In this document: positions 7,576 to 63,604 of the stretch, in pieces
Position numbering within the stretch: position 1 is the first letter of the stretch
Layout of the letters: every line of letters starts with the position of its first letter
DNA from: Phoronis australis
Taxonomy: Eukaryota; Animalia; Phoronida
Length of the DNA stretch: 64,000 bases
NCBI GenBank assembly: GCA_002633005.1
Contig: NMRA01000384.1
Span: 225,504 to 289,503, forward strand
Direction: 5' to 3'
Notes under the pieces: model-generated
Seen by the model: the letters and a program-made list of their open reading frames with translations, nothing else
Databases searched by the model: none
What the model was told of the DNA's origin: nothing
Translations under genes and position numbers: made by a program

Positions 7576-7617
7576 GGCACAGTACAATAAGGCTAGGCAC
7601 AGTACAATAAGGCTAGG
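7576..7617. repeat. Tandem 20-bp duplication (GGCACAGTACAATAAGGCTA x2)
   Basis: Seen directly in the sequence. Confidence 0.85.
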
Positions 7618-12740: not shown

Positions 12741-13079
12741 TTATTTGGGTTCGTTTCCAGGAAAAACTTCTTTACAAAGGACTGGATGCTTTGCTCTCAG
12801 GTCTTTGTAAATTTCTTCGATACGTACGCCTTGTTCAACTGTTTTGTCTGGAGGTATAGACATGGCCCCAGCATGCGGTGGGAGGTTTGGGAACTGAAAC
12901 GCGTGAAGAACTGCCACACAGGCATTCTGTCCTGCGTCGCCAACCATTCCTGGAGACCCAGAACTTCCTCCAACGAAATCCTTTCCAACATGATACAAAA
13001 CTCGTCTTGAATCCAGAAAATGCTTTGGATAGGCATTCACACGAAGAGTCTGCTGGGACCACTCACTAAGCGCCCGATA
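12741..13079 (-). CDS. Gene B terminal exon: protease C-terminal part with catalytic Ser
   Basis: TTTACAG| acceptor, phase 0; YRALSEW...VLYHVGKDFVGGSSGSPGM...AVLH...TVEQGVRIEEIYKDL...PK*. Confidence 0.9.
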   Translation of the reverse strand, partial: YRALSEWSQQTLRVNAYPKHFLDSRRVLYHVGKDFVGGSSGSPGMVGDAGQNACVAVLHAFQFPNLPPHAGAMSIPPDKTVEQGVRIEEIYKDLRAKHPVLCKEVFPGNEPK

Positions 13080-16000
13080 CTGTAAATAATAACACCTACA
13101 TGTATAGAATTACTACTGTTCATCAAGCCCATTTTGGTTGGCTCAAAAATTTTACCTAGTATTAATCTTTGATTTTACTTATGATAGTCAGAAAAAATAT
13201 CCCGACTGGACCAGTGTTGCCTGTTTTATATATCAACCATAATAAAACAAAGTTTCTCGCATCATGTATCTGGGTACGTAGACATCAATTGATTACTTAA
13301 TTGTAGGAAAAAACGTTTTAATTGAACAGGATGTTGAACATATGATGTTACTGGAACAAAAATTCTTTATGCAAATAATAAAATGAGATCGCAGATGTAA
13401 GGGTTAGATGGTAACCTGCAGTAAATGTGAAATTTAAGTGTAACTTTCCTGATGAGATGAGCTGGGTTAGAATCAGAGTATGTTTTGGAATGCTGACGTT
13501 CCCAACAGTAATCGCTACTTTGTTTTTCAATTTTTTGCCAGCTTGGTGTAAATGCCTGTCTTGTGAGCTTTGGTCACCAAGAGGTGCAAAAATGTGAAAG
13601 ATTGGCGTAAAACGAGAAAATTTGTTATTAAGCTTGAAAGATTGACAGAACACGTGAAAGATTGACATAAAACATGACAGATTGGAATAAAACGTGAAGG
13701 AGTGATAAAAATGTGAAAGATTGGCATGTGACTCCTAGCTGATCCACACAAGAATTGTAGCACCTGTTCACAAGTTGCTACAATCAGTGCATGAAAATGG
13801 GTTATTTTTTCTGACAGTATGAACTCGTTTCTACATAGTGTGCACAAATACCACAAATTGTTGACAACGTCTACAACAACCTGAAAATAGTCTACAGTTG
13901 CGACTCGTGCAAAATAATATGAACTAGGTGTTATTCATAAACGTAGCCTTGCATGTTTTTGAAATTTTCACAACTAATTCTCCAGTGCCATAGACTTTCA
14001 GAATGTATATATTATCTTTATTTCCGTAGCAACAACGTGTTCAGTGATTTCATGCCGTTCTTTTCGATCACGAGATAGACCTCGCCAGTTTTGGTAACGT
14101 TGACCATCGTTTTTATGATACCAGAGGAGTTCCAGAAGCCCTCAAAAGTGAACGCTATTTGCGCATAGTCGAACTTCAGTCACGGAGCAAGTCATGTGAC
14201 TTTCAAACTTGATATTGATTTGCTGTATGACAGACGCTTCTACATGCGCAGATAACGTTCATATCCGACGGGAAATTTGAGGCTACGAAAATATCCGAGG
14301 TGTTCCAAAGAAGATAAAGATAAAGAGTTACCTCTCGGTGAAGCTCCTCGCGGTCCAAGTGAATTACTTTGCACCCATAATCAACAACTTTCGCTTCGCC
14401 TTTAGGGTGGCCCGCGAAAATTACATATTCGTGCATGCCAAGTTTCATAAACCTGTTTATGGGTTTTGGCAACGAGGATGTTTCACACGCACATTCTAGA
14501 ATAGCATAATCCAATTCTTTATTCCAAGCAATGATTGGGTTGGCAGTGAACCCAAATTTTCTGTATCTTTGCTCATCATCTTCTTGAAACGTCCTGTCGA
14601 AGTTGAACAAACAACTTCTTCCATATTTTCTCCTTTCTTTTTCTTCATCTGAAGCAACAATGAAACGGAACATATCGAGACTCTTCAAAACCCTAAGTAT
14701 AACAATCCCTTACATCTTTGTTTTTTCATTACATTATTTGCCCACAAAAGTGGCCTAGAAGGACTTCATTTTGCCATCAGCTGTAAGAAGATATAGGGCA
14801 ACGCAAACCCACACATAAAGTGCAGAAACTTCGCTCGCTCAGTGTCAAGTGTACACGAAGGACCACTGGTCAGTGATTAGCGCACAAGGATTATTCAACA
14901 GGGGACTTTTGATACTGGTGCACTCTAGCATAATGAGAATACGAAAGTGACTTCCGAATGATGCGACTCAGATCTGGTGGAGAGAAATTCAATTACAAGT
15001 TAGTGGTTCATAAGTATAAAAACGGAAAAACAGAGAAGTAAAGTTCTCTGTCAGCTGCCCCTCCCATTGTTTGGTTAGTTAAAGTTCATTAATTTAGCTT
15101 TTTGACACAGGCTGTGGTCGAAATTCTCATACTTTATGAGCGGCAACCAATGGCTTTGTCGCAGATATACCTTCCCAGTGTTAAATATATGGAACAGAAC
15201 ATCGTTGCTCATCTGTTGACATTTCAAAAGGTTTGCCTTTTTTCGTTAAGCATTGGTACATCCCACTGCACAGCAGTGAAAATTTGCCTGTATTATAATT
15301 TAGTAGGAAAAGTGTTAAAACGCTGTTTATACCAGTAGGTTGAAACCTCCCGTCCGCATTACAGAGGATCTGTAGGTGGCGCTGAACTCCTGTCTGCCAA
15401 AGACCTGATCGCCATCTAGAGGTTTAGTGAATTTTGAAATGGCGCAGTTATTTCGAAAGTCACCTGTTGGTCTTCCAGGAGTTCAAATGTCCACCTTTCA
15501 ACAAATGTTTGCTCAAGATGAGAACGATGTTAAATTTTTTATCAGCACTATTATTCGGTCACTTGAAGTACTGCCAAATTCGAAACTTGAAATCGTAAAA
15601 TTGTGGCCGTTAAACTGTTCAGTAACAGACCAATAGCAGTGCTAGATATCCTCTCCCACTAACTGTGCTGAAAGAATCATATAACTGTCAGATGTATTCT
15701 CGTGACTGGTGTTAAATATTTCACTTCTGTGTTATTTCATCCCACGCCAATAGCAAGCAATGACTTTACTTGATTTATCGGTCCGGTTTTCTTCTGTTCT
15801 ATTGTGAATTTTCGTGAGTACATAGCGACACTAGTGTTCACAGAATTTCAATTTGAATTAAAACCAAACCTACTCCCTGATATATATAACAACACGAAAG
15901 AAATTTCAATTAAAGACCGCATCGATTGTATTTTACATGGGGCCAACTGCAAACCCCGAAATTCCAAAAGTTGTTACCATCGTCAGAATCTACATCGGGC

Positions 16001-19000
16001 TCCTTTACTACGTGGTAATTGGTCATTAAGTATCGTCTTCCAACTCGGAAGCCAGTGCCGCAGCTTCCGTTCGACCAATTAATTCGGGCGACAGACGCAG
16101 ATGCCTCCACAATTGTTTGATGTAGATGACTCGACAGAGAGTGTTTGCCGCAATCTCGAGCAGGTCCACTGCCTGTTAAAATGTTAAGGAGAAGGTTAAA
16201 CGTGGCATTTAGTAACGATGGACAGCATTTAAAGTTTATCGGAAACATTTCTTTTGATTATTGCTTAATACTTTGCACGCATCTGTCGTCATTTGCGAAC
16301 GATAAGCCCACTTAAACACCAATTAATCTAATACAAGTAATGTCGTTCTCGTTAAAGGGATACCAAACCCGGTTTTGACTTACTAACGGATACTTAAACA
16401 CGACTTTCACACCCTCTTCTCTGAAACAAAAAATACTCTATAAACCTCGACAGCACTTAGAAGGTTGGAGCAAAACTCCTTGCAAAGTGTGGTAAACGAA
16501 CAAGCGTGACCTACGCTTCGGGTGAGATATACGACAGACGTAGGGAAGTACCATAATAAGAGAGTACGAGTTTTCGGTTGAGTTCTGCTTTCCTTTTCCT
16601 TTCGTGACATGATCTTTTTGTTTGGGTGGTTACAAAGAGAAAACGCATATTAATTGAAAGACAGATTTAACAAATACCGCTTTTGGTCTGTAGTCTTGAT
16701 GCCATAACAATCTGAAACAGAGCAACTCTGCACGCAGTTAGCTTCCTTGTAACACCTGACCCTAGTCTCCCTGAGTTCCAGGGTAATACAATAGGGAAGC
16801 CAACTATACATGTACATCTCGTGCACATCTATGTAATTATCTATACCAATGCAAAGGGATTAATACCCTCAGGAGCGGAAAATAACATTTCTGGTCACCC
16901 TCGACACCCAATTTCACGAGCTGTTCGCCACCAATTTTGTGCCGTCTTCCGTCATTTGTGCCGCCCGTCATCCCCCGCCTCCCCCCTCAATCGTGGTATC
17001 GCTAGAGTGATCTAACTAAACCGTACATGCTTCTTCAAGTGACGAACGCCTCCCACCAAAAGATCCACGATTGGATAATTCCGAGTAACACTGCCTGCTT
17101 TCTTTATTTCCGTCGATCTACAAACAAACAAGCACAGGGAATATGATTTTATCATTACATCGTGGTCAAAACACCACCAGGGGCACGTTTCATGAATAAT
17201 TGTTTGTTTTAACCGAGCCTGAAATCGGGATAACTTAACATCAAAATGTCAGCGCTGTTTCATGAAAACTCTTCAGACCAAAATTAAGACAGAGATCGGT
17301 CTAAGTTCAAAAGTTTACTTGATAACTGAGTAGATTTTTGTTCTTAATGACTAAAATTTATCACTACCATAACTGTTGACTGCAAAGTAACACATTTTGA
17401 TGATATTTTTCGCCATCTAATGCCCCTAAATGATGTCAAATTGAAGATCGTCTCTTTCCGATCCAAGAGTCGGCAAAGCGGCCTAGACTTGTACTGACAA
17501 TGCAATCCGACTAAGCCAACCTGCATTTGGGAAATGATATTTCCAGCCATACCAGAGTATTCGTAAGTTAACGATATCTTTATTGTTGTAAATAAATCTC
17601 CGCTTAGCGTTTCAAGGCTAAAACTTTGAGACCGTATTTCACACACTGCCTCGCTTACTTTTTTCAATTCGTAATAAGTGATTAGAACGTAGGCCTAGTT
17701 TGCGTGCTCACCTATGATCTAATACCACGGTTAGGGACTTACAGGTGCGCACGGCAATTAAGAAATTGGTGAGCCAGGTTTGACGGTTTTATGGACTAAA
17801 GGGAATATGATTCCCACGAATCGCATTCAATGATCTTTTAAAGTTATTTTGTGTAAATGAATCAAAAAATTTGACCTTTGTTCTTGTTTACCCGGATACG
17901 GAAGTGCCGCCATCAGAGCACATCCTTTTTCAGACTTGAATTCTTGGGGCGAATTCAGGTACCTTTCAGACAAGTGCAAATTTAAAAAAAATCTAGTTGG
18001 CAAGGGCATATTTAACTTTTGGAATCTAGAGTGAAGGAGCATTCGGATTTTGCTCCCCTCTCTTACAACGGGGCACCAGGGCAGTTAGGCCTACAATGTT
18101 TGATCATTTTTTGGCATCTCACTCTTTTCCGGTAGACGTAGCAAAGCAGAAAGATATGGTTTTGTTGAATTTCTTAGAGAAACTCCATCGAGTGTACTTT
18201 TTGTCAGTTATGCTTTTAGGTGTCTTAAGACTGCTGTAAAAACAAGGGCTTTCATTGACCCAGACCAGTGATAAGGACAAAATCGGCCACTCAAACTGTC
18301 GTCATTGCCTTATATGTCAAAACCTGGGGTAAGGCAAGACCACGACCAAAAAGCGACTTTGAGTTCATGTAACGAACTTTGAATTCATATAAAGGACTTT
18401 TGAGTTCATGTTACGGACTTTCAGCAATGTCCACTTTCAACCTTAACGTAGTCCGAATTTTGAGTTTAACTAAGACACAAATTTTTGGTCTTAAGTCACT
18501 TTTCATGGACTATTATATCAGACTGACTCAATCTATTTGACGGTATACCTGTGTCAAATAAAACTTACTTTTACGGTTCTTGAAAACAAGAGGATTTCTT
18601 TCTTCCTTTTCCATATCTGGAACACTTTCATCAGCACTTCGCTGCTGAGTTTTTTTGTGCCAACAAAATGCCTGTCATCAATGAGCATACCCGTTCTCTC
18701 ACATATTTTTCTGTCCACTTTCATCGGGCTTGATTTCTTTTCCAACACTCCTTCACTGCAGGTGATTTGAGCGGAGAACATAATTTCCTGCTGGCTATGC
18801 AACTCGCTAGGGTGTTGAAAATCACACTGATGCTGTAGAAAACTTGCCTTATCCGAGTGGCAAAGCAAGCTCAGAGCTATTTCGAACTCCTCTTTTGAGG
18901 CAGAAGGACAAAACTTGACCCTGAAAGTCCTTTTTAAGTAACCTCGTATGAATTCGTAAGCCTTGCGTCGAAATTTAGTCCACCCAATAACGTGTTCTGA

Positions 19001-22000
19001 GAACTTTGAACAATAGTAGACTAAATCAGAGCCTTGCAGCTGTACTTCACTCTGACTGGTAATGTCTGTCACTTCATCTTTAGACTTCCGAAATATGAAG
19101 AAGTCAGAGACATTACAGAAACCATTCAGGTGGTTTACTATGGCACTGACGTCCACTCTCATTTCCACGGGTACTTTGAAGGAGTGTTCAGTGTGCACAC
19201 AAATTCTTTGGGGATGCAAATAAATTGTCCCTTCGTCAAATTCTTCCAAAACAGCCTGCACCAACAAAGGCTGTTCCACCCTCATAATGCTAAATTCTGT
19301 GCTCGAAAAATCCTCCAAGCCTCTTTCAATTACTGGAAACAAAGCGTTGTGCCACAAATGTTACGGCCTAAATTTAATGTAAGCACACACGGTATTGAAG
19401 TGTTCATTTTACCACATGTTCAAATTTATTGAGTGGATGTATAAAATTATAAACAGTGGGGGAATTAAGTTCATACAATACCATCTTTATTTTATTTTAC
19501 CATGGCAAAAGGAACACTGTTGATTAAGTCGTATGTACTTAAAATGAATAATAGAAAATTAACGTGAATTTGTTAACAAGTAGAGAATTTTCGTAGTTAT
19601 TTGGTGCATAGAGATTTTATGCGCGTGAACATGGTTGGTCCGTGCACTAAGAAGTCGCAAAAAGTGGCCCAGAAGAAGAGAACCTGCGTCCACGAGAGGG
19701 GCACAGTGTGCACTAGAGAAAAAAATGTTTGTTGCCTGGTAGAAGCCACGCGCGGGCAAAGAACTTTAATGCGTTAGGATGAGATGTCTCAAGCAGGGGC
19801 GGATCGTGGATTTTGAGTTAGGGGGATAGCCAGAATTTTACCCATCAAATATTCCCATCCCCCCAACTGGCAAGTGGAATCGGCAATGGCCCCCTTGGCC
19901 TCCCTCAGCCTTACAGACCATATCTTGCATTGACATTACTGTGGAAGCCATGAATTGTTGGCGAAATAAAAAATCCAATAACTACATAAAACACAGATAA
20001 AAGTAACAAAAACATCAAGGTTGAACAGTAACAGCAAAAATTAGCGGTTCTTTGGGTTCCTTGGCAAGGAAGACGAATGTACTTTTTCCCATGCAAAAAA
20101 TTCTTTTGGAAATTGAATTACTCAAAAAGTCAGTGTGACTGGTGTTTTACTTGATGCGAAATACTACAGTTACTTTCCTCTATCTTAATTTACCAGAGTG
20201 CATGGCGTCCGCTTCCCTTCCTTTCGTCATGTCTTCAATTCCTGTGTGCTGTTTCAGAGTGCCATCGTACGCGTCATTACACACGTTATCACGTAGGTCT
20301 TTTCCTGGTGTTTTTACGATATCCTCTAGATCAACACTCAAGTGTTGATCAGATGAACTTGCAGTCGCTCCCATCGACTCTTGTTGTACTTTTGAGGCAA
20401 ACCCCGATGACTCTGACACAGTTTGCTTGACCTGCTTTTGCAGATCTAGAGGTCTCTAGAAATTACAATGTACACCTAAATGTAATAAATACTCTCGTCT
20501 CATTTATTTCTCTGTGCGGACCCTTAAAAGGACAGTGAATCTAATTACACATTTTGTCAATAGCTGGCGCTAGTGACACTCGTTTGGGCTTTATTTTGCT
20601 GTTCTATTTGTTTACTAGCAGACAGCACTAGATTGACGTGACTCATGGGTCAGGACCGCGATGGTGTAATTTGTTTACAATAGCATACTAGACAACATTC
20701 CAGGAGAGCTGATGTTCCATGGGGTTGGTCTAATGATGATGTGATTTGTGTACTATAGAAAGCCAAGAGCGCCAGTTTATCGTTATTGAAATCATTTAGT
20801 TTCGTTATTGTCAAGGTAGAAGAATGTTCCATCACCCAGTTTGGAACATTCTAGAGCCTTGTTACATTTACACAAATTTGAAAAGTTCCAGAAAGTGTTT
20901 GTTTACAGGTAAGAATTTCCAGAACATTGTAATAGACTATAAATAATTGGGCTCGGGTCAGCTGAAGTTGAGCTGAGTTGAAGTAACAGTTGTAATTACA
21001 GCTTTTGTCAATAGAGGGCCAGCTATAGAGACAGCAGGTTTTGGAAAAGTAAAATCTAACCAGTCTTCAGTCTATAGTCGCACCGAAAGCTAGCTGTTAA
21101 CACCGGTCAGTAACAACCTGCGTCCACCTATCCATGGGGTTAAATGTGACAAATAATATCGTAAATTACGTGCGACTAGGTGACGTTACTACAGAATGAC
21201 AAATTTCAGTGCTCAGTAAACCTCTCAAAACCCCCCACAAGTCTTGAAACACGCTTTAAAGCACAGTAAAAAAATCATGCAAATCAGTTATATACATGAA
21301 GGCCCTAGGAGAAGGAATTAATGGCTCCGCTGAGGACCGTTCACTTTGAACCACAAAATCCAATGCGTGCACATGTCACTCCACCGGTTCGCTAGGGTCA
21401 GCTCGTGATTGAAACACGTGACATGTCTTTTTAACCAGAAGTCGTTGTCTGGAACCAATCAGATGCATCAGCCGGCTGGTCCGGTTCAACAGGAAAAATG
21501 TATCAAAAAGCAGCCAATGAGGAAGTGCTTAACTAGAATAACGTTTTTATTTGTCAGGGTAGGTGTTAAATGTGCAGTAGCACGTGGCTGAACCAGATTT
21601 GGCTGAACACGTGAAAATCGTGTTTTAAAAAATCACCAACAAGTGTTTAGTATTCGTTTAAAACAACAAGTGTTCGGGGAGATTTTTCAGTAATGCTCGT
21701 CATTTTGGAAGAAACCGGAAGTTGAGGTCGCAGTAATTCAACGCCCTTCTGTTTGATGTATTCTTATATTAAATTCTTTGTATTTGCAGACCGCAGTGAT
21801 ATGGGTTTTACTGACCTCACGAAAAGCTGTTGCATCAGTGCTCTTCTCTAGTAGGAGACTAATCACTTCCGGGTTTCCGTTTTCGGAAGCAAGTTGTAGA
21901 GGTGTTTTCGCTTCCTACAAAAATAGAAATCCCGAAATCTGGATGGAAAATGTTGGATAAGGTTTAAGAAGAGCATCACGTGGTGTGGGACTTGGGTTGC

Positions 22001-25000
22001 AGCCCCATTCAAATAACCAATGCACATATTTGTGTAAGTAATGAGTTCAGTACCTGAAGCCGAATTTTAGGAAATGAAAATAAGCGAATGATTTCCGATG
22101 GAAATGACAGCTGGAGGCCATGTTTCAGCCTGAGAATAGAAAACGAGGTCTTAAACAGTGGCTAGAATTCTGTTCGGCAACTGCGAAAGTGTAACAAACC
22201 CGAGCCTGTCTATAATCACCTTTTGAATTAGGACAATTTCTATTAAAGAGCAGCCTCACCTTGTTCTTTACTAACATTAAAAATGATTGCTAAGCTTGAC
22301 AACAATTGACAGCACGTTACTGCCTCAGACTAGACTCGTGAAGTTTCCTTGTTGCGGCACCAGTTTCAGCCGCCGAGGCAGTATCGGACTGTCTCGGAAA
22401 TTCCTGTGGATTTATTGTTCACCATTTCCAATAGAAACAAGGGATAGGACGGTTTTACTTTGGAGGTGTAAATTACACATGAGAAGAAACTTGATGTTCG
22501 AACATCAGAACGTGGATGATAGTAGCTACGATTGGGAGAAACCACCCCACCACGACGGCGACAAATGAAGCAGTAGTAGCAGAACTACGCCAGATGGCGC
22601 TAATTTCCTATCGCCAGGAAATGGGTGTCGAAGCTGATCGTCCAAACTGCCAGGAAGTGCAAATTTCAGCAGCTTGCAGACGGTTATATAAGCATGAGGT
22701 GTGTAAAAAAGACAGCACGTTTCTGTCTTTCAAAGCGACACCAAAGCCGAACCAAGTCCTCGGTGGTAGGACTGCGGTCTGTGAAAGTACGAAATCGGGA
22801 TCCTTTAAACTACTTTTGACGTATGTTTTGAGTATATTTTAAAAAATTTGAAGTAAATTGAATGCTGGTGCAAACTTCTTATGTGGTAGAAAGCTTTCTG
22901 GAACATTTTTGGCATACCTTATTGACGGCATTAAGTACAGCGCCTGCCGAGAGAAGACGTTTCACCACTTGAAGACTACCACGACTGGATGACATGTGCA
23001 GTGCAGTGTTGCCATCCTACAGTATATCGGTTAAAAATGTCAACGTCACAATTATTAAAGAAACGATGCCGCGCATTCAGACAAGAATACTTATTTTCAT
23101 TCAATGGATCTATAGGACCACCAAGTCTACTTTCTGATCGTTTTCTTTATTTTCAAGCAGAAACATTCTGTCCGCTTTTTCCATATATCGGACAACTTGT
23201 CGGATAACCAAAAGAAAAAGTGAGATCAAGTTTAATATTAAAAAGCAGTGCACAAGAAGGACGTTTCACCCTACCCACGCAAATACCACTATCCACTGAT
23301 AAAAATTCAGAGTAGGCAATTTCTCATAGTAAAATTCATTATGTACATGTACATACAACAACCCTATAGCAGTACATAGTTGTTATGTTATAGTTGTTCA
23401 CAATGACAAAAGAAAAGGTAACAGCACATCTGCAAAAATTGCCAAATTGAAAATTTACAAAAACGTAACTTTGTCATATTACATTTCCTATTGCGTCTCA
23501 GTGCTTTGGGTAAGAAAGTGTGTCAGACACGTTCTGTACACGTAGTTTCAAAGACATGAAATACAAACCAGTTCCTCTATGCCAAAACGTCGTTGTGTGA
23601 AAAGCCAAAGTTTTGGATTTCTGTTAACTGATCTTTGAAATATGCATTGGTTATGTATGTATACCCTTGTATAAACCAAATGCCAGCCCTAACGATTGTT
23701 ATGTTAAAAAAACTTCCTGAAACAATTTTCCAAACCTTATTTTTCGCTTCCAGTACAGCGCCTTTGCTGAGAAGAAGTTCCACAACTTGTAGACTACCAC
23801 GGCTGGATGACATGTGCAGCGCCGTGTTGCCATCCTACAGTATAACGTTTGACAGCGCCGTCATCACAAATACTTAAGTACGTATGCATGCACTGTTTGT
23901 CAAGTCTACGTATTTCATCGTGTTCACTTTCTGTGACGTAAAGTCAACGTGCTGAGGCAGGTGTACGTTCCGTAGAGCAAAAATCTCTCACGAATACGTA
24001 AGAACACTCAAGTTTTCACAACAAATCCCCATGTAGGATAAGCAAAGTACGTGATTACACGAGATTTTTGCGTCTCCGAAAGTTTGCCTTGAGGTCTGTT
24101 TTATGAAAAATGTCTCGAGATTTAACTCAGAAATTTGATCTTACGTTCTAGAACAAATAATTAAATCTCAATTGAGCAAAATTGCAAAGTCTCTGAGTAT
24201 TTACACACAACTGGTAGTCCCTGAGACAATTTCCACAAATCATTTCTAGGCTGTGTTGTATTCATAATTGCTTCGTTGAACCTTTTGTCAACAACGGTTA
24301 AGTGGGAGCGAAATACCAATTTTCTGTCTAAGTCTTCAATCACTTTTCTTGAAACAGGTCCCGCCACAGCGACATCTTGCGTCCAGGTTGAACTAAAAAC
24401 AGTAGACCTCGATCCATTAAGCCTGGTAGACGTACCGATGCCGAACCTCAGACACCAGTAAGTCTCGAATAACCCGAGAACGATATGTTGGAGGCAAAAA
24501 TGTTTGCAGGTTTTTGTAGCACAAGATCTATTCACACTCCAAATTTCAGACAGATTAGCCAAAGGACGCCGGAGCTACGAAACCATAAGTCACAAGGTAA
24601 AGGAAAAGCCATCAGAAACTCTTGAATAACTCTACAACGGTAGGTGGTAGCGAGAAACAGAAGGCACACATCAGACACACCCCTTGATAAGGTATATCGT
24701 ACATATCAGCCTTCCGAAGAGTCCTTCAAAGAACCGCAGAGCTAGAGCTCCACGAAGAGAATATTTGAAATTTGTCCGAGACAATGTCACCTTTTGACTC
24801 CTTTTGCCCAAAACTCTAAGCTTCGAAATTTCAACTAGATACATGTTGTGTATGAATTTCCTGTCAACCAGTAGAAAGTGGGATCTGTAGCGTACGATCA
24901 AACAAACGTACAAAAAACAAAAACAGAATACAAACTCTATGGCAAAGCATAATACTTTAGGAAATTTAATTACACCAAGTAAAAAACCAGGTGCGTAACG

Positions 25001-34107: not shown

Positions 34108-34229
34108 GATGCGATGCGTCGCTTCAAGCTCCGTATCAACCGAACCCAGCAGATGTCTTTAAAGTTTCGAGCTGTAGTGAGTCATGCAAACCGGTTTTAT
34201 CCACCGCCACTGTCCACTCGTTGGCTGAC

Positions 34230-34285
34230 AATCGAGGGAAACTACCCACTCACAACGTTACACGCATGCGCGAGGATAATTGGAT
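34230..34285 (-). promoter_or_regulatory. Candidate proximal promoter of gene B
   Basis: CCAAT (34279-34283, minus), NRF1-like CGCGCATGCG (34263-34272) and a Rel/kB-like GGGTAGTTTCCC (34236-34247) lie 130-180 bp upstream of the putative ATG. Confidence 0.3.
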
Positions 34286-34800
34286 TAACAGTCGTGCTTT
34301 TTACAGGAAGTTACTCCACAGCTATCTGTGTGCCAAAATTTGTTTGCACTGATCGAAATATTGTGCCTGTCTTTTGTGGCGCATGTCTAGCTACACAAGC
34401 AAAGCGGATACGTAGTGAACACCAGTACAATAATGTTTGTACATTCAGGTACATTTGATAGTGCATTGATTATTAAAAACGTATTTTTGAGGAAGATGTC
34501 TCGAAAAGCTTGTGTAGAATTTTTTGATACGCAAAATTGATTTAATACACGACACATGTCGTTATTAACAGTCTTTATTCCGTTCCGTTCTACACTACAC
34601 GGAACATTGGCGAAGCAACTGGCCAAGAGACTTGACTAAAAGACACACGTTATTTTGCAACATACTTGTTTTATTCTCAAGTGTAAATAAAACGACGCAG
34701 TAATAACACCACAGACCACAAGCTGGAGACATGCACAGTGGGACACAGCAGGTGTGAAGTACTGCAAAGAATGACTATTGAAAGCGGGGTAACAGGAAAG

Positions 34801-35230
34801 TCACCCAAAGAAGTGTAGCGTTCGGCGCGACCCAGTTTGCTGCTCAGTCAAAACAGGCTTCTCAAATGCAATCAAAAGGGACTCCAATACTTTCAATCGC
34901 AGCATATCGTGCCCTACATACCAAATTGACGTGTTTTCCACAATTTCTTGACGGGGTATTTTTCGTTCGTGGCATTGCAGAAAATGATCGTGGATGACGC
35001 CATTTCGAAGATGCTTACATGTAGATAACCAACGGGAAAGACTGCAAATTGTTTGACCAATATAACACCGTTTGACATGTGAACGAAGACATTCGTTCAA
35101 AGGAGAAAAACTCATGAACAACACTACACTGGCAACGGCGCGGACTTTTGCTTTAGAATGTTATTTTTCATGAGCAAAAATTTTTTGTGAATGTCCACAG
35201 ATTGTTAGGTTTAATTAGCCAGGCAAATGT
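34801..35230 (-). mobile_element. Penelope-like retroelement relic (GIY-YIG endonuclease C-terminus)
   Basis: YIGQT..SLSR...H...G.IHDHF...H...I...EIVENTSI.....DMLRLKVLESLLIAFEKPVL is typical of the PLE GIY-YIG domain. The upstream LLMKNN block is frameshifted. Confidence 0.8.
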
Positions 35231-38129: not shown

Positions 38130-38395
38130 TCACTTGGAAGGGTCTTTTCCGCAGTGAATGCACCGTACGGAAGCTTCAAAGGGAGTACCTTTAGTGTGAA
38201 AGTACATGTGGCGAGTCAAAGTACTTTTAAATTCTGGCATTTGAAATGCATCGTTAAACTTCATCTTTGACAGTTTTCTGTTGACTATCGTAAGTATGTC
38301 ACATAAATGTAGATTTTTGTGTTTTTTCTTGATAACTTTACAAAGTTCATCGATGTACGGCGACCCCTCTTCAGCACATCGATGCGCATAGTTAC
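38130..38395 (-). CDS. Gene A terminal exon: caspase small subunit
   Basis: GNYAHRCAEEGSPYIDELC...LCDILTIVNRKL...QMPEFKSTLTRHMYF...CIHCGKDPSK*. Confidence 0.92.
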
Positions 38396-53300: not shown

Positions 53301-56300
53301 NNNNNNNNNNNNNNNNNNNNNNNNNNNNNNNNNNNNNNNNNNNNNNNNNNNNNNNNNNNNNNNNNNNNNNNNNNNNNNNNNNNNNNNNNNNNNNNNNNNN
53401 NNNNNNNNNNNNNNNNNNNNNNNNNNNNNNNNNNNNNNNNNNNNNNNNNNNNNNNNNNNNNNNNNNNNNNNNNNNNNNNNNNNNNNNNNNNNNNNNNNGT
53501 TCCTGAACTGATGAGCCGGAAATGTGGGTACGGAAATAACCGATGACAACCGGTAACCATACGCTCAGAGAGAAGGGTCAAATACTGTTACAAAATCGCT
53601 TTTGGCAAGAAAGGCGAAAAGAATATAAAGAAAGGGTGTCGAAAATAAGAATTTATGTAGTAAGTATTTTCGGATACTGGAACCACATGGGCAGTTTGCA
53701 ACAAGGAATTTAAAGTCAGCAAGTTTTTGATTCCCTACCTAAAATCGTTGATTTTGACAAGCAAAGTAGTACACTCAAGCTTGGCAACTCCACATAGTTT
53801 CAAAGGAGGGTCAATATAAACATGGTTGCTTGCTTGTAATATGACTTTCCCACTAAGATTTTTAATTTTGGCCGGCTAACTAATACAGTTAATTATTCTC
53901 GTTGTTCTCTGTATGTGACCCTGCTTTTCGTTGGCTAGTGTAAAACAGAAGTTAAACAATGAGAGTGTTGCTAAGTGAACGACCTGAAATGACCTACTTT
54001 GTTACCTCATTTTCATGAGGCAAGATTAAATAGAACACTGCTAACTTAAAAAGTTATAAGCAGTGCTGTAGTGGGGCGTAGGCGCACGTAGGCGAAGCCA
54101 ACCACGTTTTAGCATTAGGACGTAGCGCCTACGCACCGTAAGTTACGTTCAGTGCTCAAGGTGATACGGTGGGCTTTGGGCGCCCACTTACCTCTAATTT
54201 TACCACTACAGCACTGGTTATAAGCTTGGTTTATTCACAAATTTGAGCTTGGTAACTCCCCTCCCCCAAACAGTGATCAGCTTTGGGTGATGTTGTTTAC
54301 TTCTAGCATGACTTTTCCATCAAAACTTTATTTGAAAAACATTTATTTCTATGCTTCAAATTTATCCTCGACGGCACTTGTAATGGAATCTGAATGGCAA
54401 TTTTGACATTTTACTTGAACATCCCCTCTCACGCCACTCATGCGAGTCTTTGCGGATTTTTCCGGAGTGTTCTCCGAAATTTTGGTGATAAATTTTTATT
54501 GGAGTAAAGAAAGGTAACAACTCCGTAATTTTGCGTTCATGTGATTTATTTTCATGATTCTGGAAAAAATCGTAAAAATTTCTCGAATGAATGTGCCTTA
54601 TGTCGTTATGAATAGGCAAGAACTCAGATCAAAACGATAGGCGTATTGTTATCAACGACATTTATCAGTTTGAAAGCACATTGCCGAAAAATTCCTGAAT
54701 ATGCTTTTGTTTTTCGTAACTCGGGCAACGAATTTGAGGATACATTTGTACCAAGACTATGGGTTTGTTTCCTGTATAGTGATTCAAAACGCAAGTCAAA
54801 AATCTCGTCTCCCAATTTTGAATCATTACTAAAAATGGTTTAGCCATGTAAATATACATGAAAGTACACCACAGCCTCAAAATGACTCATACAAATGCAT
54901 TCTAAAAGACTTTTTGTTAAACAGAGTTATAGGTATTTTTAAGAAATATTTTTGTAAGATGAGTCATTTTTCCTAAAAAGGGCCTCATGAAAATTTCGTT
55001 TTAATTGGCACTTACATTCTCCCTCCATGTCGTCAAAGTCTTCCACTTCCGGAAGTTCTCCTTCAATGTCGTCCATCGCCTGGGAACTTTTGCGTTTCGC
55101 CTTCATATCCAGTTCATTGAAGAATGTCTGCAATATATAAAACTAAGTTTTGTACACAATATCGATAAAAAAACGGACAAAAGATATGTTTATTATTTGT
55201 GTTGAATTAAGTCCCCTGTTTACAGGGGCCTTAATCAAACATACAATTGCGTCGTGATGTCACAGTCATTCCTATTTCTAGTTTGTTATCATTACACCAT
55301 CCACAGCCAACAAAGAAATCATCGATCGAAACTTTTGGGATTTCTTTTATTTGTGTCATCTATATTGCTTTAATCATACAGATCACACTGTCTTCTAGAC
55401 CTCAACGATAAATACCTGTTTACAACCCCATCATTACGTAAGCATACAATACATGTTGGTGTCAGTTCAAAGTTAACATTGCCTGATCCTCCTAAGCTAA
55501 TTAAATCTTTAAGAATATTTCTTTAAATTTGTAGACAGCTACTTTACTGTGTAATACAAGTAATTGCTGGCATTGTCAAGTAAAATTTAAGTAAGTGATG
55601 GGAATTCTGAGTAATTTAGCTGCACACAATTTGGTTAAATCACTTGTAAAATTATTCGTTGCAACATCGAAAAAATCCATCCCGGGCTTACCTGAAACAA
55701 TTCTTCCATTTTTTCTCGCATTTTTTTGCCACTTAGCGATTTCCCACATATATCGTCAGGTGTTTGTCTGTCCTGAAAATACAAGTGAAACGCGAACAGT
55801 TGAAAAATCCTCACCACAGCACCGCAAATGGCAACCTTGTAATAGTGTTAATTAGTATCACAAAATGGCCACTACAGGTATATTGCGCAAAACACGTTGA
55901 ACCTGTCTGAAAATTGAAAGGCGACGTCTTATCCCATAGGCGGATTTAGGGGGGGGGGGGGGGNCCGTCGTCTGCTCCACTGTGCAATGAAGAAAATTTA
56001 CTTCATTTTTTAAAGAAAATGGAACCTGAGTGACGATGAAAAAACAGAAGCTGCTGGTAAGATGTGAATTTTAATCGAAGCCTTAGTGAATCACTCAGAA
56101 ACTCGCAATACTCTCTTTGTCAAACCTTATCTTAAGACGATTTCCAAAGCAATCCCGTCATTATTGCCAACACGAAAAAAGGATTTGGTCTTTTGGGCAT
56201 TTGAACACTATTTTAAATAAGACAAATTTGTTAAGAATTGATGGCACAAAATATAAAAAACGTGTAATAAGCATTACAAAAAGAAGCAGATTTCGCGCGC

Positions 56301-59300
56301 AAACGCTGTGGACCATAAATAAGTAGGTCTCTTAGAAAGAGGTTGGTAGTTAAGTTGTGGTGGTGTAGTGGTAACGCACGCGCCCTCTGTCCGCCAGGTC
56401 GTGAGTTCAAGTCTTAGGTTCTTGCAGTTTGTTCTGTTCGAAACGTTCTCCGTTTTTTTTTTATTTTTTGCCTCTTTTGTCTTCAGGAATCAAGGAAAAT
56501 GCTTGATTTTTAGATGTAAAAGCAGAAAAATTTCTTGGGTGGAAAGGGGGGTTTGCCCCCCCCCACTTCGGTGCTATGCGCATCTACAATCGTGGTTCAG
56601 TTTGCGCAAATGCTTACAGCCGGACAAAAAGTTGCCCCCCCCCCTTGTGATATCCTAGATCCGCCACTGTATCCCTAATACAAAACTATATGCCGCATTT
56701 CATGAAAAACCGAGGAGGCGCTCAAGAGATTCAAGAGCAAAGATAAAAACACACATTCCACTAATCTACTGAAGAAACAGAAGTAAAATGTAAAAACTAA
56801 AATTATCCACTGAGGGGCAAAGCTGTAACATGATCAGATCCATCGAAAAGTCGTGGCAACCGTTGTCACATTCATAGGAAAACACTTGCCACAGTTTCAC
56901 TAAGGTCCGGCCAAGGATTAATGAGTTACAGCTGTGTTCGAAAAATATGACATTGGAGGAACCACACCCGTGAACACGTCAGAAAATCAACGTCTTATAA
57001 GCAACACATCTGCCAATTTTCAAAATAATCCTTTGAGCGGTTTGGCAAATGATGATAAGGTGGCCACCAGGTGGCGCCAAATAAGTCAAATCCGTTCGAA
57101 ATGGGAAAGACATATTCTCTTCTTAATACAAAGCTATTTAACGTTGTTCTTGAAAATCCTATCAATGAACTTTTACAATACAGAGGCAAACGCAAAGAAA
57201 AAACAATTTGCCACAGGAGGAGAAAGCGGTACTCGGATCGGTCCAAAACTTGTTATCGGGTGTCTTCAGCTCCATGGAAACACATGTGACAAATTTCCTT
57301 CACTGGGCTAGAGAGAAACAGCCGCTGATGCAAACAAAAACAACATTGCACCTATAGGGGAAGAGTATTCGGACTCCTCCGAAAATCACCCTCAGTCATG
57401 GTTTTCTCATAAGGATTACAGCTGCAAATTTTCAAGTTCACTATTACTCTTTGAGCGGAATGGTGGATAAAGGGGAGGACGCCAGACTAACGGATTCAAA
57501 AATAACAAAAATTTCCACAAGGTGGAGCAAAATACGTCGAACACGGCACATCCTCGATTGACGGTGATTAAAGGAATGGGTCACGATGGATCCGCCAACG
57601 AAAAACGCAACCCTGCAGTCACAACTACGGGCTTTTGGCACTACATTAACTGGAAAATTCATAAAATTATGCATTTTAACATTTTTTACATCAAAGTGGC
57701 ATTGACAAACCAGCCTCGTCCCCCAGTCTCAAGATGTCACTGATCGGCTTAGTTTTTGAGGGCTTTAAGTGATGAAGAGGAATTTACTTGTCAGTATTCT
57801 GACGCATTTTTGCGGAACCAGTGATATTAAATTCCATGCTGGAGTATAATACAAAAAATCAAAATAAGCGGTATTTAAGCAGCAATTTAAGATTTAAATC
57901 ATTGAAAAAACGAAGCCTTCCATTCAAAAGCAGGATAATTCTTATCATGGTGCTTTCAATAAAACAGAATTGAAGATGAGAACGCGAGCACCTTTTATTT
58001 GAATTAAACAATAACAAAAATTGTAACCTCTGCTGCCGAATCACGATTGGCAGCAACAACAACGCCTCTGCAAAATAGTGAAAATTTTGCCTTTAGATTT
58101 TGTTTATTCTCTGAAAAAATAATCAAATTTATCGTATCGGCAGCGCTACTAAGGCCAAACCAAAATCTGTAAAAGCTTCAAACTGCAATAAATCAAATTA
58201 ACGTAGGTGAATCATCCCGTTGAACCAGTCACAGAACTCTATTCGGTCCACGGTTTTATCACATGGAAGTTTGAAACGTTAGCTCGCCGTGCGAGAAACC
58301 AAATAAAGAGTTCCACTGCACGAAGTTAACCGAAATTATGCTTTTCAAAAATGGCGCTGCATGGGGTTGGAAAAGTATGTAAACAAGTTCAGGAAAGAGT
58401 GTTCACACTTTGAATAAAGTCCAAATCTAATGCCAAAATGTCTTGAGTCCCTTTCATATTGACTTAACTCCTGTCTGAGAGGGGCGTCAACGTATACTAG
58501 CTGCGAAGTTAGCTGGACCGTGCATACTGTTTTAGGTAGTTAATGAACATCGAAGTAAACGGTAGGTGACGCTGTCGTCATCGAAGTTATCGCTAGGTAG
58601 CGCTGCACGCTAAGATTTTTTCAATTTGACAATTTGGGAACATTTACATGTGCTAAATGACATAAAACTTATTTTTAAATCGATTGGTGATTATTAGAGC
58701 AAAATATAAGTAACTATTAGTGACAGCACTACACTGTAATTGTTGACGGTAATAGTGGCACCCAGTGATAACTTCGATAGGACCAAAGTTAACCGTTCCT
58801 ATTTCACCGCAGCGTCGACGTTGCGCTGTTAAATCCACCTGGTAACTGCGATGGTAACTGGAACTTCGCGTCTTTTATTACAGTTTTCTACACTCTTGGA
58901 ATACCTGATTAACAACAGCTATGTCGGCGCCTTCTCTAAGTAGAATGTCTGCCACTTCTAGTTGACCAAAACGGGAAGCGTAGTGAAGAGGTGTGTTGCC
59001 CTTCTACAGAAGTTACAATTTGAAGACTATCGATCAATTTCATAAGAAGAAATCTGGATGGCTCAAAGTCATTTAGCAGGTTAAGTGATGATGACGTTTG
59101 AGCCACCAGCTTATGAAGTGAAACTGGAACCCATTTTATCAATGACCGTAAGGCCCATGCCGGTTGGCTGAAGACGGTAGTAATTTATTTGCAGACAATT
59201 TATGAATTTAGCACATTAAAAAATTGCAAAGTTTCGCTTTTCTGGAAAAAGTCAGCCTCGGGTTTCTAATAATGTGTCTGCGACAGTCTTAGTAATGATC

Positions 59301-62300: not shown

Positions 62301-63604
62301 TTGCGGGGGAACCGTTGAGTAATGACGTGACAGATTTTCACAGACGTGAGGTACTTTTTTTCATGGGCTGAAAACTCTTCACATTAAATTTAGACCTTGT
62401 GAAAAAACTAACTGGGGTCATTTTTCACGAGGTCATTATTTAAAGCTACACTGGCTCGGTTAGGTATTTTTTCACTCGGTTTCGAGTGGGAAATTCTGTA
62501 TTTCGGCTATACTATAGCTCGGTTGCGCAATTCAGTCGTACAGGTTTGATATTTTGGTTACTACGCACTTTACTTTTTGCGCAAGTTTTGAGTCGCAAAA
62601 CAAAGAGCTCGTAAGCAAGCAGTGCAAATCTACAAAATTTCCAATATCAACCTCGACATAAGTACAGATTTTGCAGTGATTTATTTGTTTTGATACAACA
62701 GAAAACATCTGATTTTGGAATACGTATTAAGAAATGAATTTTTAAAGCAGTATATATTTCAATAGAGAATACATTATTCTTTTAGATGTATTGATTTGGA
62801 TGGCTGGCGAGAAAGTTCGAGGATGTTATTTTTCAGTACGAGTAAAAATACATATGATTGTCATTAATACCAAATATTTACTTAATTACAATTAACAAAC
62901 ATTATCATCATTGGATAACAGCATATGCTGGTCAATAACTATCTTTTTAATTGATCTTATATGGCCTCAATCACCAAGACTGATGTGGAAACAACGCATA
63001 GTCATTCCGCTTAAACTTTGTTGGCAGAACATAAAAACCTAGTGGCAGCACCACTAAGCTCCAAGGCCGAACCAAAAAACCCATGACTCAAGGGCAGGAC
63101 CAAAAATAATTTTTTGGCTGCAGGCATGACACTGCGAGCCCCCGGATTTTCTGATTGATGCCGTAGGGCTCCCAGTGTTTTCCGCCATTTTTGTCCTGTG
63201 TAACACTCTCCAATATGGCGTCATATTGACAACGCGAGCTTCATGGATCTGAGTGGCGCGCGCCCGGTCTATGTATTAAGATGTCTATGGCAGTCTCTGT
63301 TTTAGTTGGTTATTTGCTAGAAATAAAGTTTAGCATAGAATTGCAGAAATTATAACTAAAATTATATTCAACTTAATGCAATGGATTTCATCAAGAGATG
63401 CCCGGTTTTACGGCTAATTTTCCTCACCGACTCAGGGATAACAGTTCGTGTTTTGCGTTTGGTGAACACTCACTTCGAGCAAACAACCTCCATGTAACCA
63501 ATTACCTCATCGGGAGCTGACACGTCTGCTCCGCAAATAACCAACAACTCCACAACTTCCCAGCGACCGTTCAACGCCGCCCAGTGTAGTGGTGTCCGTT
63601 TGTC
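38130..63604 (-). CDS. Gene A (5'-partial, 11 exons, about 680 aa in window): ankyrin repeats - acidic linker - ZU5/UPA-like domain - caspase (peptidase C14A p20+p10)
   Basis: In-frame GT-AG exons with matching phases: 63506-63604, 58905-59003, 55692-55772, 55016-55127, 51754-52553, 51269-51302, 42747-42845, 41782-41969, 39525-39612, 38731-38904, 38130-38395. Caspase motifs GLVVIINNVNF, ILSHG, PKVFVYQSCR, DMLTAYAT, GSPYI and QMPE are present. Confidence 0.85.
38731..38904 (-). CDS. Gene A caspase exon with catalytic Cys and inter-subunit linker
   Basis: Phase 1-1; ECPKVFVYQSCRVDEADA...PPDSDMLTAYATTE. Confidence 0.92.
39525..39612 (-). CDS. Gene A caspase p20 exon
   Basis: Phase 0-1; DGIYTIDGPLITFKEICSYFRGDKLSKMR. 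It is missed by the ORF track. Confidence 0.9.
39647..39998. mobile_element. Foldback MITE (inverted arms of about 150 bp)
   Basis: GCAGAAAATTACGAG...AAGCATGTGCGACCTCTGGTGGA is mirrored by TCCACCAGAGGTCGCACATGCTT...CTCATAACTTTCTGC. Confidence 0.85.
40450..41409 (-). mobile_element. Non-autonomous Kolobok-like DNA transposon
   Basis: TTAA flanks both sides. Imperfect TIRs AGTGTACACAACATG / CATGGTGTGTACTGT and an inner inverted ACGTCATGGGTTGAAC. A decayed ORF has an acidic N-terminus and an RRSPPGCC...LRKHIF fragment reminiscent of Kolobok accessory proteins. Confidence 0.55.
41782..41969 (-). CDS. Gene A caspase exon with catalytic His
   Basis: Phase 1-0; GSNNDERELTKTFQQIL...FSQLICFILSHGKK. 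Confidence 0.92.
42747..42845 (-). CDS. Gene A first caspase exon
   Basis: Phase 1-1; GDYPRAGKGLVVIINNVNFYAENEEERARRRRD. Confidence 0.92.
43188..43755 (+). mobile_element. Solo-LTR-like repeat, copy 2
   Basis: Shares blocks with 20555-21151; boundaries are approximate. Confidence 0.5.
45001..45660 (-). mobile_element. LINE (CR1/L2-type) reverse-transcriptase 3' relic
   Basis: PKNNCSKRTFEYRGAGAYNGLGTAVTKAPNVHVFKQK is the typical C-terminal motif of CR1/L2 ORF2. The upstream part is decayed. Confidence 0.65.
46321..51092. mobile_element. Non-autonomous TIR DNA transposon of about 4.8 kb (EnSpm/CACTA-like ends)
   Basis: CTCATACCAAAA at the left end and TTTTGGTATGGG at the right end, with arrays of AAGCTTGCGGCAA-like subterminal repeats at both. 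Internal tandem repeats are at 47570-47705 and 48555-48870. Confidence 0.7.
51269..51302 (-). CDS. Gene A 34-nt adaptor micro-exon
   Basis: TCTCTTACAG|VTEGHDSDMAV(G)|GTATGT converts phase 0 to phase 1, exactly as needed to join the caspase exon. Confidence 0.8.
51754..52553 (-). CDS. Gene A large exon: ZU5/UPA-like region
   Basis: 800 nt, phase 1-0. Homologous to 18569-19332: IHPQKIEV/LHPQRICV, DEVANIT/DEVTDIT, FDCMFCP/FRVKFCP, HQCD/HQCD, IDKNVCE/VDRKICE, RQIVK/SRTVK. Confidence 0.85.
53267..53498. other. Assembly gap (N run) inside a gene A intron
   Basis: Run of N. Confidence 0.99.
54061..54216. mobile_element. hAT-type MITE with 8-bp TSD
   Basis: TIR CAGTGCTGTAGTGG...CCACTACAGCACTG flanked by GTTATAAG on both sides. 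Confidence 0.9.
55016..55127 (-). CDS. Gene A acidic linker exon
   Basis: TTGCAG|TFFNELDMKAKRKSSQAMDDIEGELPEVEDFDDMEGE|GTAAGT; phase 0-1. Confidence 0.8.
55692..55772 (-). CDS. Gene A C-terminal capping ankyrin exon
   Basis: TATTTTCAG|DRQTPDDICGKSLSGKKMREKMEELFQ|GTAAGC; 81 nt, phase 0-0. Confidence 0.8.
55935..56669. mobile_element. Non-autonomous element with CA(G/T)xGGCGGAT-type ends containing a tRNA-derived head
   Basis: CATAGGCGGATTTAGGGGG...CCTAGATCCGCCACTG ends, with an internal A box TGGTGTAGTGG and B box GAGTTCAAGTC at about 56361-56413. Confidence 0.55.
58905..59003 (-). CDS. Gene A ankyrin exon
   Basis: 99 nt, phase 0-0: KGNTPLHYASRFGQLEVADILLREGADIAVVNQ. Confidence 0.92.
60168..63289. 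mobile_element. Non-autonomous P-element-like transposon with nested insertions
   Basis: CATAGACA...TGTCTATG termini, a perfect 8-bp TSD GCAGTCTC (60160-60167 and 63290-63297), and subterminal inverted TGACGCCATATTGGAGAGTGTT. Confidence 0.8.
60865..61043. mobile_element. MITE, copy 2 (family of 4900-5074)
   Basis: Reverse-complement match to 4900-5074. Confidence 0.7.
63506..63604 (-). CDS. Gene A ankyrin exon (most 5' exon confidently seen)
   Basis: 99 nt, phase 0-0: DKRTPLHWAALNGRWEVVELLVICGADVSAPDE. Confidence 0.92.

Follow-up and report, generated by a model that had tools for sequence, protein, structure and literature searches.

To our knowledge, the well-studied ZU5-UPA sensors all act on a protease by way of death-fold adaptors. 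PIDD1 (LRR-ZU5-ZU5-UPA-DD) leads through RAIDD to caspase-2 according to PMC11637483, and in CARD8 and NLRP1 the FIIND, itself a ZU5-UPA unit, precedes a CARD that acts on caspase-1 as described in PMC3210808; for these two proteins UPA is reported to lower the threshold of assembly, and UPA-promoted clustering offers a model for activation (PMC7794386). Ankyrin-caspase fusions are already known as the ANK-caspases, which have been reported from parasitic flatworms and one annelid and as unseen in deuterostomes and ecdysozoans; the term 'ZU5' is absent from the flatworm paper. FAM111 proteases of vertebrates have UBL domains along with a PIP box, coral and lancelet members are without UBLs, and the word 'ankyrin' is absent from the available text of a FAM111 review (PMC9798293). 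In a literature search of largely open-access papers, we found no description of ZU5-UPA-protease fusions, nor of an ankyrin-ZU5-UPA chain joined to a caspase or a FAM111-like protease.

The window analysed here is a stretch of 64,000 nt from Phoronis australis (assembly GCA_002633005.1, contig NMRA01000384.1, positions 225,504-289,503, forward), in which two genes span 12741-63604; all coordinates are window positions, 1 being the first letter (Table 1). The two genes are encoded on the minus strand, with 4.6 kb between the stop of gene A and the first exon seen of gene B, in agreement with an earlier note on this DNA that had placed two same-strand genes about 4 kb apart. Gene A (63604 to 38130) has 11 exons and 679 codons up to its stop, with AG acceptors and GT donors throughout, and it begins beyond the edge of the window. 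Gene B runs from 33504 to 12741 with 15 phase-compatible exons and 953 stop-free codons before the terminal stop, and no ATG exon was found for it. Our preferred reading, to which we give a probability of roughly 55%, is that these are two anciently diverged genes with an ankyrin stack and a likely ZU5-UPA module, followed by a spliced caspase in gene A and a predicted FAM111-like protease in gene B, and that they probably encode cytosolic one-chain sensor-proteases of immunity or regulated cell death.

Table 1. Features of genes A and B in the window, each listed from its 5' end
Feature	Position	Strand	Details
Gene A ankyrin exon, first seen	63506..63604	-	99 nt, phase 0-0; Pfam Ank E 4.7e-10; splice sites
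Gene A ankyrin exon	58905..59003	-	99 nt, phase 0-0
Gene A 81-nt exon, end of ankyrin stack	55692..55772	-	phase 0-0; RNA contig joint skipping 564 nt
Gene A acidic linker exon	55016..55127	-	phase 0-1; RNA contig record 7; joint 52552/55015, CT..AC
Gene A large exon, inferred ZU5-UPA-like module	51754..52553	-	800 nt, phase 1-0; homology to gene B exon
Gene A 34-nt microexon, module to caspase	51269..51302	-	phase 0-1; joints 51300/51752 and 42843/51267, CT..AC, depth 37.2
Caspase exon 1	42747..42845	-	phase 1-1; joined in RNA contig; open frame
Caspase exon 2, catalytic His (SHG)	41782..41969	-	Peptidase_C14 E 1.3e-6; aligns to caspase-3 LSHG
Caspase exon 3	39525..39612	-	phase 0-1; joint 38902/39527 in 4 X3 reads, 4 other letters between
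Caspase exon 4, catalytic Cys (QSCRV), Asp-containing intersubunit linker	38731..38904	-	Peptidase_C14 E 0.006
Caspase small-subunit exon and stop	38130..38395	-	Peptidase_C14 E 4.5e-10; RNA contig record 1
Gene B ankyrin array, nine phase-0 exons, two alternating repeat types	21816..33504	-	
Gene B ankyrin exons 1-3	33504-33403 (102 nt), 31872-31774, 29136-29038	-	
Gene B ankyrin exons 4-6	27912-27814, 26393-26295, 25104-25006	-	
Gene B ankyrin exons 7-9	23834-23736, 23016-22918, 21914-21816	-	
Gene B linker exon	20194..20455	-	262 nt, phase 0-1; sparse sense RNA reads
Gene B large exon, ZU5-UPA-like	18569..19332	-	764 nt, phase 1-0; ESM Atlas, sense RNA reads
Gene B bridging exon, predicted	17027..17117	-	phase 0-1; prediction alone; no reads
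Alternative gene B bridge, 34-nt candidate	16711-16678	-	
Serine protease exon 1, catalytic His (TNYH)	15978..16172	-	Trypsin_2 E 0.002, below curated cut-off
Serine protease exon 2, catalytic Asp (ELDYA)	14332..14648	-	best PDB match FAM111A, E 0.049
Serine protease exon 3, catalytic Ser (GSSGSP) and stop	12741..13079	-	sequence, triad spacing

The comparison of the two genes supports a common chassis of ankyrin exons and one large exon that ends in proteases of two unrelated kinds, each with its active-site residues in place: the His-Cys dyad in A and the His-Asp-Ser triad in B are both present as the earlier note had read them. The 99-nt phase-0 ankyrin exons that it recorded in each gene number two in A and eight in B, where a ninth measures 102 nt, and both of the ankyrin exons tested matched Pfam Ank. 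Two adjoining ankyrin exons of gene B are identical at 80/99 nt, from which we conclude that its array grew via exon duplication; the 81-nt exon of gene A is extra relative to the gene B plan. A phase 0-1 linker exon is likewise present in both genes, as claimed, but homology between the two is undetectable, and a common origin for them was rejected when 613/1000 shuffles reached the alignment score.

The large exons, one of phase 1-0 in each gene and about 0.8 kb long, are homologous and colinear, as had been proposed. By BLASTP they align at 68.6 bits (E 3e-18), with 53/207 residues identical (26%), and their local alignment score of 175 exceeds those of all 1000 shuffles (33.8 +/- 5.2, maximum 68); each half aligns significantly on its own (0/1000 shuffles reaching the score), and the two exons have identical phases and an identical end point. 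No match between A and B exons was found at the nucleotide level. At 26% identity the pair is therefore old, so that the description 'tandem paralog pair' holds for adjacent genes with homologous large exons, but with 'tandem' meaning adjacency only.

The naming of this exon as ZU5-UPA draws mainly on the ESM Atlas. There the gene B exon has a first match of 0.96 to a cluster in which 47% of members carry ZU5 and the commonest phylum is Echinodermata, 9 of its 10 best family-bearing matches share a family or clan, and UNC5B, FIIND and UPA clusters follow. These ZU5/UPA/FIIND matches lie at 0.91-0.96, a first-match level seen in about 1 in 100 shuffled proteins, and the 0.96 counts as weak evidence because the recognition value of 2189 is below the 2300 mark. 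The gene A exon has Ig-like Atlas matches only (0.79). A Pfam search with both exons returned no ZU5, UPA or FIIND match, and weak matches to MPN/Abraxas were rejected as below cut-off. AlphaFold models from two-sequence alignments were poor (pLDDT 33 and 42); the low-confidence model of the gene B C-terminal half adopts a beta-sandwich fold, matched weakly and about equally by C2 and Ig folds (Z about 5) and by NLRP1/CARD8 chains (Z 4.4-4.5), with no UNC5, ankyrin or PIDD chain among the matches listed. No Foldseek match reached E 0.001, and a PDB sequence search with the A and B pair profile gave one weak match. The earlier name is thus retained for gene B through its language-model match, by which the exon likely resembles ZU5-UPA families, but it found no confirmation in Pfam or in fold searches, and the gene A exon would be ZU5-UPA-like through homology to that of gene B. 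A K-F-S motif at 19006-18998 in gene B, at the inferred position of the ZU5/UPA boundary, is a candidate self-cleavage site, so placed that gene B may self-cleave; the F-S motif is missing from the gene A large exon.

In gene A the large exon is spliced to the caspase in contigs of one run. This run, X1, is presumed to be RNA and its joints track predicted introns: one contig joins the large exon to the 34-nt microexon and on to caspase exon 1, the joints fit four predicted gene A introns by length, three of them with CT..AC ends, and both joints flanking the microexon have a depth of 37.2, equal to that of a record of 478 nt on the large exon. In runs X2-X4, the reads on this exon and in most caspase-exon bins were exclusively of sense direction. 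A reading of gene A as a fossil or pseudogene was rejected, its frame being open and spliced. Peptidase_C14 was matched by 3/4 caspase exons scanned together, two above the curated cut-off, and not by the fifth exon, and the best PDB matches of the small subunit are caspase-6 small subunits (E 5e-8). Both dyad motifs, SHG and QSCRV, are present, and the three S1-pocket residues (Arg, Gln, Arg) presumably are as well, judged by eye against caspase numbering. In QSCRV a Val replaces the usual final Gly, and QSCRG is reported to be active in an amphioxus caspase (PMC3196919). Asp-specific proteolysis by gene A is a putative activity.

Gene B is predicted to end in a trypsin-fold protease whose nearest relative may be FAM111A. 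The earlier label 'FAM111-like' agrees with the top PDB match of protease exon 2 and with a triad spacing of 58 + 99 residues against 54 + 102 in FAM111A, but the E-value of that match is only 0.049; exon 3 alone had no Pfam or PDB match, and a PDB search with exons 1 and 3 was without a FAM111A match. A pseudogene is unlikely, given the open frame and intact triad. The long ORF in the intron between module and protease has no death-domain or other Pfam match.

Blank searches for relatives say nothing on absence, because the collections used are poor in animal genes. With that scope, homologous-protein searches restricted to longer proteins (queries: gene B large exon, pair alignment, protease exon 2) and metagenome scans returned 0 matches, and two weak representative-protein matches of the gene A large exon, to repetitive proteins, were judged spurious. 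No member of the 'modular receptor-protease family' proposed earlier, beyond the two genes themselves, came up in homolog, representative and metagenome searches of these animal-poor collections.

That the chassis is spliced to its protease, as first claimed for both genes, was borne out for A by the contig joints, but no such joint is among those listed for B, where the join is a prediction. It is accordingly conceivable, if unlikely, that only gene A is a fusion and that gene B, an ankyrin-ZU5-UPA gene, has the large exon as its last, the protease being separate or rarely joined. None of the 13 predicted gene B introns in the stretch searched for reads appears among the 8 joints listed, the bins covering the bridge and the first two protease exons (600 bases of exon) hold zero sense reads at 96% likeness, compared with a summed sense depth of 1.7-3 on the linker and large exon, and sense reads map to the intron that follows the large exon. 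The choice of bridging exon is ambiguous as well, an equally good candidate occurring by chance in 2/11 control blocks, and an open frame extends upstream from the 16172 acceptor, with an in-frame ATG near 16248 that could start a separate protease. Set against this are a strong donor on the gene B large exon, at the position homologous to the RNA-confirmed donor of gene A, the strong acceptor at 16172 and the fitting, stop-free phases; sparse sense reads occur in other gene B introns too, so that depth is near noise. The evidence for a missing join is itself limited because depth is very low and the 96% setting, chosen against repeat noise, is stricter and may lose divergent gene B alleles; the stretch searched for reads leaves out the first exon and 5' end of the gene.

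Should both fusions be real, they could yet serve a non-immune purpose, the ankyrin/ZU5-UPA part being a scaffold that localises a regulated protease for a task in development, in regeneration or in the repair of DNA-protein cross-links. ZU5-UPA does occur in ankyrins and UNC5 too (PMC3210808), the gene A small subunit is nearest to an executioner, caspase-6, and FAM111A is described as working also in DNA replication (PMC9798293). We nonetheless consider this improbable: the strong divergence, the duplication of ankyrin exons, the weak expression and the presence of two different effectors on one chassis are a better fit to conflict genes, and no close homologs were found, unlike the case of conserved scaffolds, in searches that are weak for animals. 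Slighter still are the chances that the large exon is another beta-sandwich pair, Ig- or C2-like, that acts as a spacer, in which case the analogy with PIDD and CARD8 fails. The blank Pfam search, the Ig-like Atlas matches of gene A and the C2/Ig matches of the gene B C-terminal half, at Z values like those of NLRP1/CARD8, point that way, but the Atlas matches of gene B are consistently to ZU5/UPA/FIIND, and the length, the place after the ankyrin repeats and the position of F-S all fit a ZU5-UPA module.

On the preferred reading of one-chain sensor-proteases, the ankyrin stack would bind a ligand, or be itself the target of damage, and this event would free the ZU5-UPA module to cluster, like UPA in NLRP1 and CARD8. 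Clustering would bring the attached proteases together and so switch them on. The protease would occupy the death-fold slot of PIDD1, UNC5 and CARD8, with the adaptor step skipped, and where gene B may self-cleave at F-S, gene A would stay one chain. Caspases depend on dimerisation. The FAM111A protease domain does so too (PMC10920703), and this common dependence would explain how a single chassis can take either of two unrelated proteases. An immune role for either gene is putative. More tentatively, and at clearly less than even odds, the genes may represent a family of invertebrate 'one-chain PIDDosomes', undescribed so far and free of adaptors, in which a fixed ankyrin-ZU5-UPA sensor activates whichever dimerisation-dependent protease was shuffled onto it, one copy self-cleaving and one not. 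If true, this would be the first sensor-coupled setting for a FAM111-type protease, and would suggest that such proteases were immune effectors before their DNA replication role in vertebrates. A protease-bearing chain would offer a minimal system in which to test if clustering of UPA is enough to activate an enzyme, and a FAM111-like protease coupled to a repeat sensor would give a handle on how this antiviral family is switched on.

Compared with PIDD1, these genes would likewise pair a repeat sensor and a ZU5-UPA module with protease output, in gene A a caspase, but with ankyrins replacing the LRRs, a single module (about 255 aa), and the protease in the chain itself without death domain or adaptor; gene A is also without F-S. 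No death-fold domain follows the module: that of gene A is spliced to the caspase, and none was matched in the exons and ORF scanned after that of gene B. As in CARD8 and NLRP1, a likely ZU5-UPA module precedes the output domain, and the F-S of gene B would stand at the matching place; here, in contrast, CARD, NACHT and LRR are absent, the candidate self-cleavage site is confined to gene B and the protease is built in. With the ZU5-UPA-DD supramodule of UNC5 and canonical ankyrins these genes would share the succession of ankyrin repeats and ZU5-UPA, and UNC5B clusters are among the Atlas matches of gene B, but an enzyme replaces the death domain and nine ankyrin exons are seen in gene B against 24 canonical repeats. 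Gene B, as a predicted intracellular trypsin-fold protease, resembles FAM111A and FAM111B in triad spacing and in the ELDYA and GHP-GE-K motifs, and differs from the vertebrate members in its N-terminus, which is ankyrin and ZU5-UPA-like with no UBL. Gene A, compared by description with the flatworm ANK-caspases, is also an ankyrin-caspase, with an extra module and a p10 nearest to caspase-6, and would place this architecture outside flatworms.

The two genes are encoded on the minus strand of what is animal DNA (39% GC, long introns, scattered repeats), in which no further gene was recognised within 1-12700. In gene A, the ankyrin-caspase gene, the joining of the large exon to the caspase is shown by RNA joints of run X1 that match predicted introns, sense reads from X2-X4 and X3 reads over a caspase intron; the key joint comes from one run, X1. 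RNA from four runs, of which X2-X4 belong to a different study from X1, was aligned to 37900-55900 at 90% likeness. Among the 15 joints (skipped stretches in the alignment) listed of 37, four come from X1 and skip 8423, 451, 2462 and 564 nt, the predicted lengths of gene A introns, and three of these four have CT..AC ends. The weak point of the gene model had been the 8.4-kb intron upstream of the caspase. The joints flanking the microexon have a depth of 37.2 on both sides, as does a 478-nt record with its first 363 nt on the large exon, and from this shared depth we infer that a single contig spans large exon, microexon and caspase. In X2-X4, low, sense-only depth covers the large exon and most caspase-exon bins, and four X3 reads cross one caspase intron.

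Positions of genes, exons and other features in the window
Feature	Position	Strand	Remarks
Gene A	63604-38130 (stop)	-	11 exons, 679 codons: two 99-nt ankyrin, 81-nt, acidic linker (phase 0-1), 800-nt large (phase 1-0), 34-nt microexon, five caspase
Gene A large exon	52553-51754	-	800 nt
Gene A caspase tail	38133-38220	-	Short, C-terminal, Cys/His-containing; weak zf-H2C2_2 match (E 0.004), far below cut-off
Gene A caspase intron	38902-39527	-	X3 reads differ from the window by four letters at the joint; allele or close paralog
Repeat in gene A intron	40500-41500		Many RNA reads, both strands
Two short ORFs in that repeat	40940-41209, 40609-40959	-	By eye resemble a transposon remnant; no Pfam match
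RNA in gene A 8.4-kb intron	46876-48100, 49300-50500		High depth, mainly opposite strand, diverged contigs; most likely expressed repeats of other loci
Gene B	33504-12741	-	15 exons, 953 codons, stop-free: nine ankyrin, 262-nt linker, 764-nt large, predicted bridge, three protease
Gene B large exon	19332-18569	-	764 nt
Differences in gene B large exon	18986, 19008		3/3 X2 reads; one is synonymous, the other changes Ser to Leu three residues ahead of the candidate self-cleavage serine
Gene B bridge candidates	17117, 16711	-	91 nt or 34 nt
ORF between genes A and B	34804-35160	-	By eye resembles what is left of the GIY-YIG endonuclease of a Penelope-type retroelement; no Pfam match
ORF	1180-1509	-	110 aa, resembles part of a gene of mobile-element origin; no Pfam match
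Assembly gap	about 5900-6800		One of two; the window contains 1120 N in total
Assembly gap	53260-53500		In a gene A intron, spliced out per RNA

Pfam Ank matched the one gene A ankyrin exon tested. The most 5' exon recognised is an internal one, which puts the start of the gene, and possibly further ankyrins, beyond the window. Peptidase_C14 matched three of the four caspase exons scanned, and the small subunit is closest to caspase-6 (E 5e-8). The catalytic dyad described in the earlier note is intact, with its His within SHG and its Cys within QSCRV.

The translations of the two large exons are 26% identical over 207 aa (E 3e-18), with a score far exceeding 1000 shuffles and each half significant separately, which bears out the colinearity claimed for them. 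There is no nucleotide match between the two exons and no third copy in the window, so the duplication behind them is, on sequence grounds, old. The common exon plan that had been proposed holds for the ankyrin exons, the phase 0-1 linker exons and the phase 1-0 large exon; between the sequences of the two linkers no relationship was detectable. The proposed ZU5-UPA identity is likely. Pfam gave no ZU5, UPA or FIIND match on either large exon. The ESM Atlas, which matches protein-language-model clusters, grouped the gene B exon with clusters of ZU5/UPA type (0.96 for the top hit, 185/256 features), followed by UNC5B, UPA_2 and FIIND clusters, the nearest clusters being mostly echinoderm; because the recognition value is under the mark, this is weak-to-moderate evidence for ZU5/UPA in gene B. 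The gene A exon alone drew Ig-like matches only (0.79) and takes its label from homology to the gene B exon. Fold searches with poor structure models returned a beta-sandwich in the C-terminal half, and nothing more. With the Pfam result on one side and the Atlas grouping on the other, we regard a shared module other than ZU5-UPA as very improbable. Near the middle of the gene B exon lies K-F-S, a candidate self-cleavage site. According to PMC3210808, S-F-S of CARD8 and H-F-S of PIDD are placed ahead of the last ZU5 strand, and CARD8 cleavage depends on the Phe and the second Ser, the first residue being minor and another His assisting; K-F-S of gene B would be at the corresponding place, whereas gene A has no F-S there.

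The ankyrin exons of gene B alternate between two types and one adjacent pair is identical at 80/99 nt, which points to enlargement of the array through exon duplication. The first protease exon matches Trypsin_2 (E 0.002). As to the putative FAM111-like assignment, FAM111A is the top of five PDB matches for the second exon, at a weak E of 0.049; the third gave no match in the PDB sequence search. The His-Asp-Ser triad is intact, as the earlier note had read it, with spacings of 58 and 99 residues as against 54 and 102 in FAM111A (H385, D439, S541; PMC10920703).

Splicing into the protease, asserted for both genes and confirmed in gene A, was not recovered in gene B, where alignment to 12650-32600 at 96% likeness placed none of the 13 predicted introns among the eight joints listed. 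Sense reads from X2-X4 are sparse over the ankyrin, linker and large exons (summed depth 1.7-3 on the linker and large exons) and absent from the bins that cover the bridge and the first two protease exons; a 3' UTR may account for the few in the last bin. Comparably sparse reads also occur in some bins within introns, so these data, which count against the join rather than for it, are near noise. The bridge exon is ambiguous, its shorter candidate having the length of the gene A microexon, and an equally good candidate occurred in 2 of 11 control blocks. In favour of the join, the large exon has a strong donor, homologous in position to the RNA-confirmed donor of gene A and with compatible phases, and no other domain was found in the long ORF of the following intron. 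A protease gene separate from the ankyrin and large-exon gene, as the empty protease bins would allow, is unlikely set against the conserved donor, and the predicted join is probable.

We give roughly one chance in three to the reading that both genes belong to an adaptor-free, one-chain family in which a fixed ankyrin-ZU5-UPA sensor is combined with a shuffled caspase or FAM111-like protease. Caspases are activated by dimerisation. Substrate cleavage by FAM111A likewise requires it (PMC10920703), so both effectors fit a proximity switch. In the favoured explanation, the ankyrin repeats would bind ligand, the module would then cluster, like the UPA of NLRP1 and CARD8 (PMC7794386), and clustering would switch on the attached protease. 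Analogy and the pattern of effector exchange would suggest an immune role; a non-immune scaffold role for both fusions seems distinctly unlikely. Overall, the original observation was confirmed and its interpretation supported in part, the gene B join being unconfirmed by RNA.

Ankyrin pro-domain caspases have been described from parasitic flatworms and one annelid, and stated as unseen in deuterostomes and ecdysozoans, in a preprint whose available text contains no occurrence of ZU5 (10.1101/2023.12.11.571055). FAM111 members of coral and lancelet are without UBLs according to a FAM111 review in which ankyrin is unmentioned (PMC9798293). The portions available of PMC3482391 and PMC13228809 hold nothing on these fusions, and in the main texts searched neither full architecture (ankyrin-module-caspase or ankyrin-module-FAM111-like protease) was found described. 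Domain shuffling around ZU5-UPA and caspases is a known theme in marine invertebrates (PMC8195603, PMC3196919), and PIDD1 carries a death domain where gene A, and by prediction gene B, place a protease (PMC11637483). Genes A and B are probably a variant of the ZU5-UPA sensor, with the caspase fusion of the former seen in RNA and the protease fusion of the latter predicted.
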